A DNA stretch of 64,000 nt from Escherichia coli (GTDB taxonomy: Bacteria > Pseudomonadota > Gammaproteobacteria > Enterobacterales > Enterobacteriaceae). Position numbers and translations under genes: made by a program. Numbering within the stretch: the first letter of the stretch is position 1; each line of letters opens with the position of its first letter. This document shows, piece by piece, positions 8,845-12,677 of this stretch. The notes beneath the pieces are model-generated. The model ran no database searches, was not told where the DNA came from, and worked only from the letters and a program-made list of their open reading frames with translations. The stretch lies in assembly GCF_046105845.1 (NCBI RefSeq), contig NZ_CP151004.1; one strand, written 5' to 3'.

Positions 8845-9450
8845 GATTGTCTGCTCCCCTGTCTTGTTATGGGAGCAGTATTCGCGGACAAAAGAATTTG
8901 ATAAAAGAATTAATCATTATGGGCAATACGTTTTTATTCTTAGCAAAAAAATGGCAAACGATAGATTAGTTATGCATGTATCTACCATGTTAAGACTTAG
9001 TAAGCTGTGATTCAGCATGGATGTGAATAAATAATCAAATAGTTCGTTTTCTTATTTACCATTGACCACATGAATGAATAGATGAGCCATCAAGAAACCA
9101 TTCAGATTTTATATAAAACAGCCCTCATACAATGTCAGTATTTTATATATCATTCACTTAATGAATAAATATAAAATAGTTCACAAAGATATTTTTTAAA
9201 TGCAATTAATTGACAAACTAAATCACATCTAAATACAATATATAAAACAAAATTACCATGTATGCTAAGCAAACAAACATTTAACATATGATATACATAA
9301 ATAAAATCTGTCTCCCTAAAGCCCCGTAGGTTATTAAATAACCATTATTTTTAAGGGTTATTTTTTTTAACAGTATGCTTTTTTAGCATCTGAGGATGTT
9401 GCAGTTGGCTACTGTTCTGCGTTCGCCAGGTTTTCTGCATAATAATTAAA
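8845..9450. promoter_or_regulatory. Long AT-rich divergent intergenic region upstream of tauA and yaiS (tauABCD promoter; sulfate-starvation CysB/Cbl control expected)
   Basis: About 600 bp non-coding, very AT-rich from ~9050-9420; the CysB/Cbl role is established knowledge, individual sites not mapped here. Confidence 0.4.
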
Positions 9451-10137
9451 ATGGAGTGTCATGAATTGGATAAGGTTTTAACTTCTGCGTTGCATTCTTC
9501 CGAGAAAAAGAGGAAAGGTATCCTTGCGATTGGCGCACATCCTGACGATATAGAATTAGGTTGTGGCGCATCGCTTGCTCGACTTGCGAAAAAGGGAATT
9601 TATATCGCAGCCGTTGTCATGACTTCCGGTGATTCTGGTGTAAATGATATTATTGACCGCCATGAAGAATCACGCGAAGCATTAATGATGTTGGGTTGCG
9701 CGCAAACAATACATCTTAATTTTGCCGACACTCGTACCCATTTGCAGCTCAATGATATGATTTCCGCCCTGGAAGACATCATTAAAAATCAAATTCCTTC
9801 TGATGTTGAAATCATGCGGGTATATACCATGCATGATGCCGACCGCCATCAGGATCATCTTGCTGTTTATCAAGCTTCAATGGTTGCCTGCCGAACTATT
9901 CCACAAATTCTCGGCTACGAAACCCCAAGCACCTGGCTTTCATTTATGCCTCAGGTTTTTGAATCCGTTAAAGAAGAATATTTCACAGTCAAACTTGCTG
10001 CATTAAAAAAACATAAAAGCCAGGAACGACGCGATTATATGCGTCATGATCGCCTGCGTGCAGTTGCACAATTTCGCGGGCAACAGGTCAATAGCGATCT
10101 GGGTGAAGGCTTTGTAATTCATAAAATGATTCTTTGA
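9451..10137 (+). CDS. yaiS: PIG-L/LmbE-family N-acetylglucosaminyl deacetylase-like protein
   Basis: 228-aa ORF with the N-terminal LmbE-type motif AIGAHPDDIELGCG; exact start uncertain (no clear SD). Confidence 0.8.
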   Translation: MECHELDKVLTSALHSSEKKRKGILAIGAHPDDIELGCGASLARLAKKGIYIAAVVMTSGDSGVNDIIDRHEESREALMMLGCAQTIHLNFADTRTHLQLNDMISALEDIIKNQIPSDVEIMRVYTMHDADRHQDHLAVYQASMVACRTIPQILGYETPSTWLSFMPQVFESVKEEYFTVKLAALKKHKSQERRDYMRHDRLRAVAQFRGQQVNSDLGEGFVIHKMIL

Positions 10138-10146
10138 GCAAATTGC

Positions 10147-11343
10147 ATGAAAACCTGGATATTTATCTGTATGTCCATAGCAATGTTGCTATGGTTTTTA
10201 AGTACGCTAAAACGTAAACCCAGTCAAAAGAAAGGCTGTATTGACGCAATTATACCTGCTTATAACGAAGGCCCGTGTCTGGCACAGTCACTGGATAATC
10301 TGCTGCGTAACCCTTATTTTTGCCGGGTAATTTGCGTAAACGACGGCTCCACGGACAATACCGAAGCGGTCATGGAGGAAGTCAAACGCAAATGGGGCGA
10401 CCGCTTTGTTGCCGTCACGCAAAAAAATACCGGTAAAGGTGGTGCGCTGATGAATGGCCTCAATTACGCCACCTGCGACCAGGTTTTTTTAAGTGATGCC
10501 GACACCTATGTTCCGCCCGATCAAGACGGAATGGGCTATATGCTGGCAGAAATTGAGCGCGGTGCCGATGCCGTAGGCGGCATTCCCTCTACTGCGTTGA
10601 AAGGCGCGGGTCTGTTACCACACATCCGCGCGACCGTAAAGTTGCCGATGATTGTTATGAAGCGCACGCTACAGCAGCTCGTGGGCGGCGCACCGTTTAT
10701 TATCAGCGGTGCCTGCGGGATGTTCCGTACTGATGTATTGCGTAAGTTCGGTTTCTCAGATCGTACTAAAGTCGAAGACCTTGATCTCACCTGGACATTG
10801 GTGGCAAACGGCTACCGTATTCGGCAGGCGAATCGCTGCATCGTATACCCACAGGAATGCAACAGCCCGCGTGAGGAGTGGCGTCGCTGGCGGCGTTGGA
10901 TTGTGGGCTACGCGGTCTGTATGCGCCTGCATAAAAGACTTTTATTTAGCCGCTTCGGTATCTTCAGTATATTTCCTATGCTGTTGGTTGTGCTTTATGG
11001 CGTTGGGATTTATCTCACTACCTGGTTTAATGAATTCATCACCACCGGGCCGCATGGTGTGGTGTTGGCAATGTTTCCGCTTATCTGGGTCGGCGTAGTT
11101 TGTGTTATTGGTGCTTTTAGCGCCTGGTTTCATCGTTGCTGGTTGTTGGTGCCTTTAGCGCCGCTTTCCGTTGTGTATGTATTATTAGCTTATGCCATCT
11201 GGATTATTTATGGACTTATTGCCTTTTTTACTGGACGCGAACCTCAGCGCGACAAACCCACCCGCTATTCCGCACTGGTGGAAGCGTCAACCGCTTATTC
11301 CCAACCTTCTGCTACAGGAACTGAAAAACTATCTGAAGCTTAA
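10147..11343 (+). CDS. yaiP: Family 2 glycosyltransferase with C-terminal multi-TM domain (processive-synthase-like)
   Basis: 398 aa; N-terminal TM helix, GT-A motifs (NDGSTDNT, SDADTY), WRRWRRW (QxxRW-like) followed by four predicted TM helices. Confidence 0.88.
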   Translation: MKTWIFICMSIAMLLWFLSTLKRKPSQKKGCIDAIIPAYNEGPCLAQSLDNLLRNPYFCRVICVNDGSTDNTEAVMEEVKRKWGDRFVAVTQKNTGKGGALMNGLNYATCDQVFLSDADTYVPPDQDGMGYMLAEIERGADAVGGIPSTALKGAGLLPHIRATVKLPMIVMKRTLQQLVGGAPFIISGACGMFRTDVLRKFGFSDRTKVEDLDLTWTLVANGYRIRQANRCIVYPQECNSPREEWRRWRRWIVGYAVCMRLHKRLLFSRFGIFSIFPMLLVVLYGVGIYLTTWFNEFITTGPHGVVLAMFPLIWVGVVCVIGAFSAWFHRCWLLVPLAPLSVVYVLLAYAIWIIYGLIAFFTGREPQRDKPTRYSALVEASTAYSQPSATGTEKLSEA

Positions 11344-11902
11344 TGTTAAAGAGAAAAACATTCAGATTGCAGACCAGGTAATTATTGATGAAACTGCAGG
11401 TGAAGTTGTTATCGGCGCGAATACCCGTATTTGTCATGGTGCCGTTATTCAGGGTCCGGTAGTGATTGGCGCAAACTGCCTGATAGGTAATTATGCGTTT
11501 ATTCGTCCTGGCACAATAATCAGCAATGGCGTAAAAATTGGTTTTGCCACCGAAATTAAAAATGCGGTTATTGAAGCGGAAGCAACGATTGGTCCGCAAT
11601 GCTTTATCGCCGACTCGGTAGTTGCAAACCAGGCATATTTGGGCGCACAAGTACGTACCAGTAATCATCGTCTGGATGAACAGCCCGTGTCTGTTAGAAC
11701 TCCAGAGGGAATTATCGCTACCGGATGCGATAAATTAGGTTGTTATATCGGGCAGCGTTCACGCCTTGGCGTACAAGTTATTATTTTGCCTGGGCGAATT
11801 ATTTCCCCGAACACGCAACTTGGCCCGCGCGTGATTGTAGAACGTAATTTACCTCCCGGAACTTATTCACTCCGACAAGAACTTATCCGTACAGGAGATT
11901 AA
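11192..11902 (+). CDS. yaiX: Hexapeptide-repeat (left-handed beta-helix) acyl/acetyltransferase, intact YaiX; start uncertain
   Basis: Repeating [LIV]-G-x-x-x-x hexapeptide pattern; no in-frame ATG/GTG/TTG downstream of the yaiP stop (11343), so the ORF must start at ATG 11192 or 11210, overlapping the yaiP 3' end out of frame. Confidence 0.6.
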   Translation: MPSGLFMDLLPFLLDANLSATNPPAIPHWWKRQPLIPNLLLQELKNYLKLNVKEKNIQIADQVIIDETAGEVVIGANTRICHGAVIQGPVVIGANCLIGNYAFIRPGTIISNGVKIGFATEIKNAVIEAEATIGPQCFIADSVVANQAYLGAQVRTSNHRLDEQPVSVRTPEGIIATGCDKLGCYIGQRSRLGVQVIILPGRIISPNTQLGPRVIVERNLPPGTYSLRQELIRTGD

Positions 11903-11903
11903 A

Positions 11904-12677
11904 ATGATAAAACGGACGTTATTAGCGGCGGTCATTTTTAGCGCATTGCCCGCTTATGCCGGGTTAACTTCCATTACCGCGGGCTACGATTTTACCGATT
12001 ATTCTGGCGATCATGGCAACCGTAATTTAGCGTATGCTGAACTGGTGGCGAAAGTTGAAAACGCAACGCTGCTTTTTAATCTTTCCCAGGGGCGTCGTGA
12101 TTATGAAACTGAACATTTCAATGCCACTCGCGGTCAGGGTGCGGTCTGGTATAAATGGAATAACTGGCTGACAACCCGAACGGGTATTGCCTTTGCGGAT
12201 AATACGCCGGTCTTTGCCCGCCAGGATTTTCGTCAGGATATTAACCTGGCACTGTTGCCAAAAACGCTTTTCACGACCGGTTATCGCTACACGAAATATT
12301 ACGATGATGTCGAAGTCGATGCCTGGCAAGGCGGCGTATCACTCTATACTGGCCCGGTGATCACCAGCTATCGCTATACCCATTATGACTCCAGCGATGC
12401 AGGTGGTAGTTACAGCAATATGATTTCCGTGCGTCTGAATGACCCGCGCGGCACTGGTTATACGCAACTATGGCTAAGCCGCGGAACAGGTGCTTACACC
12501 TATGACTGGACGCCAGAAACACGCTACGGCAGCATGAAGAGCGTCAGTTTGCAACGTATTCAACCGCTGACTGAGCAACTTAATCTCGGGCTGACGGCAG
12601 GTAAAGTGTGGTACGACACCCCAACCGATGATTATAACGGTCTGCAACTTGCAGCCCATCTGACCTGGAAATTCTGA
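11904..12677 (+). CDS. yaiO: Outer-membrane beta-barrel protein YaiO
   Basis: 257 aa; signal peptide MIKRTLLAAVIFSALPAYA; C-terminal ...LTWKF; GGAG RBS; starts 2 nt after the yaiX stop. Confidence 0.88.
   Translation: MIKRTLLAAVIFSALPAYAGLTSITAGYDFTDYSGDHGNRNLAYAELVAKVENATLLFNLSQGRRDYETEHFNATRGQGAVWYKWNNWLTTRTGIAFADNTPVFARQDFRQDINLALLPKTLFTTGYRYTKYYDDVEVDAWQGGVSLYTGPVITSYRYTHYDSSDAGGSYSNMISVRLNDPRGTGYTQLWLSRGTGAYTYDWTPETRYGSMKSVSLQRIQPLTEQLNLGLTAGKVWYDTPTDDYNGLQLAAHLTWKF

Follow-up and report, generated by a model that had tools for sequence, protein, structure and literature searches.

Analysis of a 64,000-nucleotide stretch of the Escherichia coli contig NZ_CP151004.1 (assembly GCF_046105845.1; hereafter the window) indicated that two neighbouring genes, yaiP, coding for a membrane glycosyltransferase, and yaiX, coding for a predicted acyltransferase, are best explained as a genuine co-directional overlapping gene pair. 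Comparison with homologous loci makes it highly probable that yaiX coding begins upstream of the yaiP stop codon, and favours, with less assurance, a start at ATG 11210, which would give a product of 230 amino acids (aa) and an overlap of 134 nucleotides (nt). The original prediction that yaiX must start inside yaiP, with a long out-of-frame overlap, was upheld by the alignment of the Met-Trp-Trp N-terminus of distant homologues, by the conservation of ATG 11210, by a trough of synonymous variation in yaiP and by the curated gene model of strain MG1655. The two genes lie on the same strand in different frames and share nucleotides, and both open reading frames (ORFs) have conserved homologues; conserved yaiX coding is found upstream of the yaiP stop, the next canonical start being GTG 11462; synonymous change in yaiP is suppressed, and the arrangement is kept in 14 enteric-type loci. 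The annotation reference was E. coli PCN033 (NZ_CP006632.1), to which positions 10900-12000 of the window (1.1 kb) are 100% identical. The reading frames and candidate start sites are the following.

10147 to 11343, plus strand: yaiP, coding for a 398-aa membrane GT2 glycosyltransferase, PgaC-like (PF00535, 99.2 bits)
11341 to 11343, plus strand: yaiP stop codon TAA
11210 to 11902, plus strand: yaiX in its best model, coding for a 230-aa left-handed beta-helix (hexapeptide) acetyltransferase, from ATG 11210 to TAA 11900-11902 (PF00132, 64.3 bits)
11210 to 11343, plus strand: dual-frame region of 134 nt, yaiX being in the +1 frame relative to yaiP
11192 to 11194, plus strand: alternative upstream ATG (236-aa model, 152-nt overlap), in Escherichia only
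11200 to 11203, plus strand: weak Shine-Dalgarno-like UGGA, 6 nt upstream of ATG 11210, derived from an invariant YaiP Trp codon
11267 to 11269, plus strand: ATT, here called site B, three codons ahead of the Trp-Trp pair of YaiX; a minor non-canonical start candidate in E. coli
11321 to 11323, plus strand: CTG used as start by RefSeq PGAP (193 aa, 23-nt overlap), a probable truncation

The yaiX frame is open from 11189, after TAG 11186, to the stop codon at 11900-11902. Recalculation gave the same distances as those first proposed, the in-frame ATGs 11192 and 11210 lying 152 and 134 nt ahead of the yaiP end in the +1 frame with the yaiP stop at 11341-11343, and methionine occurs in the 236-aa translation solely at residues 1 and 7, as had also been noted. 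The statement that the yaiX frame contains no start codon past the yaiP stop is correct for ATG but not for GTG and TTG, five of which are present (GTG 11462, TTG 11639, GTG 11687, TTG 11786 and GTG 11831); these are not credible starts because they are at least 119 nt downstream and within the conserved beta-helix domain. Nor are the two ATGs the sole plausible starts, since TTG 11219, a further canonical in-frame codon inside yaiP, had been overlooked. Between 11219 and 11462 the yaiX frame holds no ATG, GTG or TTG. ATG 11210 is embedded in the YaiP Tyr-Gly codons (TAT GGA), in an AU-rich context that is the least structured of all candidate starts (-3.9 kcal/mol over 60 nt). The duplex of its Shine-Dalgarno (SD) sequence with the anti-SD was calculated at -3.1 kcal/mol in E. 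coli and at -3.1 to -6.0 kcal/mol over the 14 enteric loci.

A search for YaiX homologues returned 526 sequences, and the counts given here refer to the 120 matches listed. Homologues of about 206 aa with 46-54% identity, from soil and water metagenomes, Pseudomonas, Acinetobacter and Sphingomonas, begin with Met-Trp-Trp (MWW), which aligns with H28-W29-W30 of the 236-aa E. coli ORF, and the Trp-Trp pair occupies residues 2-3 in 48 of the 120 matches listed. Enteric homologues begin instead with MDLLPFLLD, MDYQASLPD or MELHHSLPD at the position of 11210.

11276 to 11281, plus strand: TGG TGG, the family-wide Trp-Trp of the YaiX N-terminus; the same bases code for Val-Val, or Leu-Val in E. coli, near the ancestral YaiP C-terminus

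The Kaiserbacteria homologue (locus L017), which has no GT2 gene upstream, also begins with MWW, and the Trp-Trp is therefore conserved for the acetyltransferase itself and not as a by-product of the other frame. Since it is conserved in the acetyltransferase, yaiX coding should extend to at least 11276, 68 nt before the yaiP end. E. coli YaiX and the distant homologues have in common the segment W-W-x-R-x-x-L-I-P-x-x-L. In the AlphaFold2 prediction of the 230-aa model, residues 31-50 are confident (predicted local distance difference test, pLDDT, about 85), with a helix over residues 36-41; CTG 11321 corresponds to residue 38, inside this helix and 13 codons past the Trp-Trp.

In total, 22 loci were examined in detail, 15 from a contig scan and further enteric loci added singly. 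The enteric-type group of 14 comprises E. coli, E. whittamii, four Citrobacter loci (three species), a metagenome contig, Superficieibacter, two Enterobacter, two Salmonella, an Ignatzschineria metagenome-assembled genome (MAG) and a second E. coli copy. A pair of the yaiP-yaiX type is adjacent in 21 of the 22 loci, the exception being the Kaiserbacteria locus. In all seven non-enteric loci with an upstream glycosyltransferase, found in Pseudomonas, Acinetobacter, Sphingomonas and several metagenomic genomes, the glycosyltransferase ends with TG(R)EPxRDKPTRYxxVVx and a stop codon, and the acetyltransferase starts at ATG or GTG followed by TGG-TGG, with an overlap of 14 nt. The Arg codon of the TRY motif is AGG in most non-enteric loci and makes a GAGG or AAGG SD about 7 nt upstream of this start, with a duplex of -5.4 to -7.2 kcal/mol in 6/8 non-enteric loci as against 0 to -4 at the same place in enterics. 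The corresponding positions in the window are these.

11263 to 11265, plus strand: CGC, the Arg codon of YaiP TRY; AGG or AGA in non-enteric relatives, CGN in enterics
11273 to 11275, plus strand: CAC, at the position of the ancestral ATG/GTG start (His28 of the 236-aa ORF)
11284 to 11286, plus strand: GCG, at the position of the ancestral yaiP stop after VVx, now a sense codon

Alignment of the junctions revealed that all 14 enteric-type loci have lost the ancestral start codon (now CAC, TAC, CCT, CGG and others), its SD and the ancestral yaiP stop. The conserved part of YaiP ends with TGREPQRDKPTRY (to 11268), and enteric YaiP is longer by 7-24 poorly conserved residues; judged from the alignment, the residues after about 11284 are a poorly conserved tail produced by loss of the ancestral stop. 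The comparison of the junction across species that had been proposed as a check bears out the overlap, as each of the 14 loci has an in-frame ATG at the 11210 position (TAT or CAT followed by GGA, Tyr/His-Gly in YaiP) and a frame that is open from there to the Trp-Trp. Counted from this ATG, the overlap spans about 83-149 nt across the 14 loci. A stop codon stands one or two codons upstream of the ATG in 5/14 of them, and 4/7 non-enteric loci carry stops within the stretch equivalent to that from 11210 to the Trp-Trp. In a neighbour-joining tree of the left-handed beta-helix proteins the enteric-type sequences formed one clade nested among MWW-starting lineages; the long overlap is therefore a derived state, and probably arose once.

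Constraint on the shared sequence was assessed in a codon alignment of the 14 enteric-type yaiP genes, whose DNA is 63-95% identical to that of the window. Two segments of the dual-frame region behave differently.

11209 to 11235, plus strand: nine yaiP codons (YGLIAFFTG) over yaiX codons 1-9 (MDLLPFLLD), with synonymous variation nearly abolished
11237 to 11272, plus strand: spacer of the YaiX N-terminal extension, where YaiP is conserved (REPxRDKPTRY) and YaiX is unconstrained except for an open frame

The nine-codon window from 11209 ranked lowest of the 352 in yaiP for synonymous diversity, with a value of 0.137 where the gene mean is 0.57, and none of 100,000 random draws was equally low; the next independent trough in yaiP lies over the Trp-Trp codons. 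At 11210-11236 variation is low at all three codon positions, as expected of a double constraint. At 11237-11272, in turn, variation falls mostly on yaiP third positions (0.50 vs 0.12 and 0.20), and the YaiP frame, with an amino-acid identity of 0.81, is better kept than the YaiX frame, with 0.43. Both frames are relaxed at 11273-11343, YaiX being the better conserved (0.41 vs 0.24). Past 11343 a clear yaiX periodicity appears, with codon-position diversities of 0.31/0.20/0.62, and by this pattern the downstream part of yaiX is under purifying selection. At the population level, the 90 nt at 11197-11286 were identical in 4814/4861 E. coli records (99%), while control 90-mers were identical in 791/4847 (16%), 99/4841 (2%) and 3078/4858 (63%) records. 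With the YaiP sequence and local codon usage fixed, an ATG with an open +1 frame to the Trp-Trp is expected in only 9% of synonymous recodings, yet all 14 enteric-type loci retain it, more than chance would give.

An internal promoter or RNA element was also considered as the reason for the conserved 27 nt and was rejected, as no promoter-like site was found between 11100 and 11350, the region had no match in Rfam, and it was not more structured than shuffled sequence (z = +1.3). Elsewhere in yaiP, a terminator-like hairpin with a T-rich tail was observed at 11147-11163; such sites are fewer in the scanned region than the shuffle expectation, and the hairpin is probably due to chance.

Another start inside yaiP, either ATG 11192 (236 aa, 152 nt, as in KEGG and older GenBank records) or TTG 11219 (227 aa, 125 nt), is in our estimate unlikely. 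Both codons are in frame and upstream of the Trp-Trp; ATG 11192 occurs in all seven Escherichia sequences inspected and its 236-aa product, taken from KEGG, was the variant used in a 2026 paper (PMC13058169), while TTG 11219 is kept in the 11 loci of the E. coli type, with a GGA 4 nt ahead of it. Of the two ATGs first put forward, however, only 11210 stood up to comparison. Citrobacter and every other enteric locus lack ATG 11192, a stop lies between the 11192 and 11210 positions in five loci, the YaiP Tyr codon that holds this ATG is a free mix of TAT and TAC across enterics (column 348, synonymous diversity 0.53), and no SD-like sequence precedes it (+0.9 kcal/mol); the synonymous trough, moreover, starts at about 11203-11209 and not at 11192. 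Loci of the Salmonella type do not have TTG 11219, and TTG generally initiates less strongly than ATG.

Still less probable is a non-canonical start at ATT 11267 (77-nt overlap), CTG 11309 (35 nt) or CTG 11321 (23 nt), the last two of which reinitiation might aid. PGAP picks CTG 11321 or CTG 11309, several Citrobacter loci have GTG at the 11321 position, and every enteric locus has ATG, ATT, ATA or TTG at site B. ATG is the form seen in Salmonella, Enterobacter bugandensis, Enterobacter sp. PGRG2 and Superficieibacter, the remaining loci having one of the other three, and the codon of YaiP Tyr 373, which supplies it, is TAT in every enteric locus. CTG and ATT are, however, very weak initiators in E. 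coli. Neither ATT 11267 nor the CTGs have a usable SD, and the 60 nt around ATT 11267 are GC-rich and fold at -16.8 kcal/mol. Starts at CTG 11309 or 11321 would delete the Trp-Trp and the conserved W-W-x-R-x-x-L-I-P-x-x-L segment and would begin within the confident helix, and the choice made by PGAP varies by strain and jumps to GTG 11378 upon a GTA-to-GTG polymorphism, which resembles a rule-based fallback. None of these codons explains the synonymous trough at 11209-11235.

That yaiX is effectively untranslated, a decaying gene whose overlap is merely an open frame without biological use, was judged improbable. It would agree with the loss of the ancestral start and SD and the weak SD at 11210, with the tolerance by K-12 of an IS2 element in yaiX and a nonsense codon in yaiS, with the absence of the region from about 10% of complete E. 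coli genomes, and with the doubt about native expression voiced in PMC13058169. Against it, the yaiX-only part bears the mark of purifying selection across enterics with 63-95% identity in yaiP DNA, residues of the catalytic domain are invariant, about 4,450 E. coli genomes have an uninterrupted yaiX frame, and the ATG and open frame are retained in every enteric-type locus. A passage of EcoGene 3.0 (PMC3531124) also mentions, through a meeting abstract, a clumping phenotype of the repaired K-12 copy that depends on yaiX and yaiP.

A +1 ribosomal frameshift or transcriptional slippage in 11189-11343, which would need no yaiX start and yield a YaiP-YaiX fusion, is hardly credible: the +1 frame is open from 11189, a T6 run (11224-11229) inside the doubly constrained segment would join the frames by a +1 slip, and a protein in the database (P0032) has precisely this fused form, yet its source, the 911-nt Logan contig SRR28345966_26687 (L031), contains three 1-nt indels (11123, 11224 and 11632) and is a sequencing artefact, a GT2 domain occurs in 0/120 YaiX homologues among the matches listed, and the run is broken in E. 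whittamii (TTTGTT), Enterobacter sp. PGRG2 and Salmonella-type loci, all of which retain the ATG. The frameshifting that the original prediction had entertained was thus not substantiated: no conserved slippery site and no natural fusion were found, no Rfam frameshift element matched, and in the interval 11330-11345, where a frameshift-prone motif had been suspected, there is neither an X XXY YYZ heptamer nor a prfB-like CUU UGA, the yaiP stop itself varying between TAA, TGA and TAG among species. Coupled translation, its other suggestion, was not supported either: it would suit the 14-nt overlap seen in non-enteric relatives, but in E. coli the start precedes the stop by 134 nt. Coupling over a short overlap of the ATGA or TAATG type was discarded on the same distance.

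Two further candidates were rejected. The third-frame TAATG at 11341-11345 (ATG 11343, a 12-codon ORF, MLKRKTFRLQTR, which an extra A in the A5 run at 11354-11358 would join to yaiX) is absent in E. whittamii and Citrobacter, has the conserved Trp-Trp upstream of it and looks like chance. An annotation artefact by 5-prime extension in the sense of Palleja et al. (2008; their categories i and v) does not apply: the 230-aa model does exceed the distant homologues of 206 aa by 24 aa, but the codon at the orthologous start is CAC in E. coli.

The co-directional overlap with initiation at ATG 11210 can be set out as a sequence of events, of which the changes at the junction, like the gene anatomy and the double constraint, are shown by the comparisons. 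The ancestral junction had a 14-nt overlap, in most cases with a GAGG-type SD, suited to coupling by termination and reinitiation. In the enteric-type clade the start (CAC in E. coli), the SD (AGG to CGC) and the yaiP stop (GCG) were lost, and yaiP would as a result have gained 7-24 codons of poor conservation, which in E. coli take it to 11343. We infer that ribosomes initiate de novo and independently at AUG 11210, the closest conserved in-frame ATG on the upstream side; the site is AU-rich and unstructured and offers a minimal UGGA Shine-Dalgarno. The product would carry a 9-residue head, MDLLPFLLD, sharing its nucleotides with YGLIAFFTG of YaiP, then a 12-residue spacer that follows the synonymous drift of yaiP, and then the Trp-Trp segment and the beta-helix, whereas ribosomes translating yaiP would carry on to 11343 and append the non-conserved tail.

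Several points weigh against this interpretation. The synonymous-site test rests on 14 related sequences that are phylogenetically non-independent, and the control 90-mers of the population test depend on the alleles that PCN033 carries. ATG 11210 has a weak SD; in PMC13058169 no SD was seen and much expression of yaiX was doubted, and no ribosome-profiling or N-terminal proteomic data for the intact locus were found in the literature. Disorder is predicted for residues 1-25 of the 230-aa model (pLDDT <50), so that the AlphaFold2 model neither supports nor excludes a structural role of the N-terminal extension; codons 10-21 are not conserved as protein, and the extension may be without a function of its own. 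By sequence, TTG 11219 and, in Escherichia, ATG 11192 are inseparable from 11210, and in four enteric species an ATG 1-3 codons ahead of the Trp-Trp could be the real start there.

Four co-directional genes, yaiS-yaiP-yaiX-yaiO, make up the locus, with frmR and frmA downstream of yaiO. The members other than yaiP and yaiX, and the candidate promoter, are listed below.

9210 to 9239, plus strand: candidate promoter of the yaiS-yaiP-yaiX-yaiO operon, sigma-70-like (TTGACA-18-TACAAT), upstream of yaiS, from consensus match alone (11/12)
9451 to 10137, plus strand: yaiS, an intact 228-aa ORF coding for a PIG-L family deacetylase (PF02585, 84.6 bits)
11904 to 12677, plus strand: yaiO, the last cluster gene, coding for an outer-membrane beta-barrel (TIGR04390, 184 bits)

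The yaiO start is 1 nt past the yaiX stop and is preceded by a strong SD, AGGAG, within the yaiX end (duplex -7.4). YaiP scored 102 bits against TIGR03937, under the family cut-off. YaiX matched PF00132 well above the cut-off of 27, its AlphaFold2 core has pLDDT >90 with short regular strands, and it is by these predictions a hexapeptide-repeat (left-handed beta-helix) acyltransferase. By sequence, its best match among the solved structures in the PDB is the acetyltransferase domain of ST0452, an archaeal bifunctional sugar-1-phosphate nucleotidylyltransferase/acetyltransferase (2ggo, 5z09), which matches YaiX residues 62-218 with E = 1e-22; TIGR03992 and NF041173 match the same part with scores far under the family cut-offs. 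Unlike ST0452, YaiX is without a nucleotidyltransferase domain, has its own N-terminal Trp-Trp segment and is a stand-alone protein in a PgaC-like polysaccharide cluster. The set of PIG-L deacetylase, PgaC-like GT2 synthase, beta-helix acetyltransferase and YaiO barrel is kept from Alphaproteobacteria and Pseudomonas to enterics (L004, L013-L016, L019, L020), and resembles an exopolysaccharide system of the synthase-dependent type that includes deacetylation and re-acylation.

Variation in the cluster was seen at other places. Enterobacter sp. PGRG2 (L024, 2501-3226 and 3141-3917) has a yaiX homologue with a C-terminal extension of about 30 aa and an annotated 86-nt overlap with yaiO, apparently a second long co-directional overlap in the same operon that would have arisen by stop-codon loss. 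C. braakii ATCC 51113 carries two diverged cluster copies (L008, L011), and the second E. coli copy (L027; plasmid-borne per the P0051 listing) is closest to that of the Ignatzschineria MAG (L012), which together suggest horizontal transfer of the cluster.

Existing annotations of yaiX disagree with one another. The RefSeq PGAP protein for this genome, WP_072272147.1, starts at the non-canonical CTG 11321, that of IHE3034 at CTG 11309 (197 aa), and those of strains with the GTA-to-GTG change at GTG 11378 (174 aa); all three are probably truncated models. A 230-aa model beginning with MDLL is present in the protein database in a cluster of 1737 member sequences. In the curated MG1655 record (NC_000913.3) the yaiX pseudogene b4579 starts at 382872 and yaiP ends at 382739, which gives an overlap of 134 nt, and its start is the ATG equivalent to 11210. 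The overlap is thus already known, the curated K-12 annotation carrying exactly the 134-nt model, and the suggestion that the gene boundaries differ from current models holds for RefSeq, with its at least three inconsistent shorter models, but not for the MG1655 record. That record (EcoGene/EcoCyc) has the same ATG and the same overlap as the window copy but describes a gene split by IS2A and called a pseudogene, whereas the copy in the window is intact. No published justification of the MG1655 start and no account of the origin of the overlap were found in the literature searched.

The IS2 (IS2A) in yaiX of K-12-type strains lies directly after window position 11492 (L003, 3595-4896; L032, 3761-5091). 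The 71-aa 'YaiX' of PMC13058169 agrees with a C-terminal fragment that begins at GTG 11687 and ends at the yaiX stop (236 - 165 = 71). In K-12 yaiS a change of CAG to TAG at the position of 10021 cuts the protein to 185 aa, so that the K-12 operon has two defects, the yaiS nonsense codon and the IS2 in yaiX. RefSeq labels the intact yaiS of PCN033 as an incomplete pseudogene (9466-9876). It also places a small antisense gene at 10003-10122 in the 3' part of yaiS, annotated here as a hypothetical protein and, at the corresponding position in CH10268, a K-12-type strain and MG1655, as ykiC. Compared with a K-12-type strain, about 24% of positions differ at 9401-9744 and only 4 in the next 400 nt, which looks like a recombination breakpoint inside the 5' half of yaiS.

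Compared with known cases, the kind of the yaiP-yaiX overlap and its mode of origin are well known, and its size is unusual. In a survey of 338 genomes (Palleja, Harrington and Bork 2008, PMC2478687) the longest co-directional overlap accepted as real was holD-rimI of Enterobacteria, with 32 nt in E. coli and a maximum of 56 nt in Salmonella and Yersinia, and no real one exceeded 60 nt. Like yaiP-yaiX, holD-rimI is a same-strand, out-of-frame overlap that joins two conserved protein genes in one operon, conserved across Enterobacteria with a length that differs by genus, but yaiP-yaiX is longer, with 134 nt in E. coli, and would still measure about 70 nt or more in any model that keeps the Trp-Trp. 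The length-versus-orthologue rule of that survey would flag yaiP-yaiX as a '5-prime and 3-prime extension' error. In the model of Fonseca, Harris and Posada (2013, PMC3887535) overlaps originate by loss of the upstream stop and/or replacement of the downstream start, and both are seen here against the non-enteric relatives, the yaiP stop having become a sense codon and the yaiX ATG having been replaced by an upstream ATG; the case differs in that both events occurred at one junction that already overlapped by 14 nt, and in that the new yaiX start lies within the conserved part of YaiP and not just in the tail. Meydan et al. (bioRxiv 10.1101/520783) used retapamulin profiling to detect out-of-frame internal starts, such as that of gndA in gnd; the resulting peptides have 2-84 aa and are mostly unconserved, and the main text names neither yaiP nor yaiX. 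The proposed yaiX start resembles those starts in being an AUG inside another gene, in another frame and independently recognised, but would serve a full-size conserved enzyme and is kept across a family-level clade.

The general significance is modest, since the curated K-12 annotation already includes the overlap, and overlaps of this kind and mode of origin are well known. The comparisons nevertheless give evidence for one yaiX gene model where RefSeq carries, in thousands of E. coli genomes, at least three models that cut the N-terminus. If true, a translated overlap of 134 nt would be more than twice the longest accepted in the 2008 survey, and would make a useful counter-example and test case, since it has been argued that practically all co-directional overlaps >60 nt are errors of annotation. 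Constructs that express or repair yaiX, as for the clumping and the 2026 overexpression phenotypes, must include sequence within yaiP, and the single change T11211C would knock out yaiX and leave YaiP unaltered. For the evolution of the cluster, the loci provide a stepwise record from a 14-nt, coupling-type overlap to one of 134 nt by way of the loss of start, SD and stop. More speculatively, and with considerable doubt, the 134-nt overlap may be truly translated throughout the enteric radiation, with nine dual codons that are functional in both proteins and a start inside yaiP that lets the ribosomes translating yaiP set a low, fixed ratio of YaiX to YaiP.

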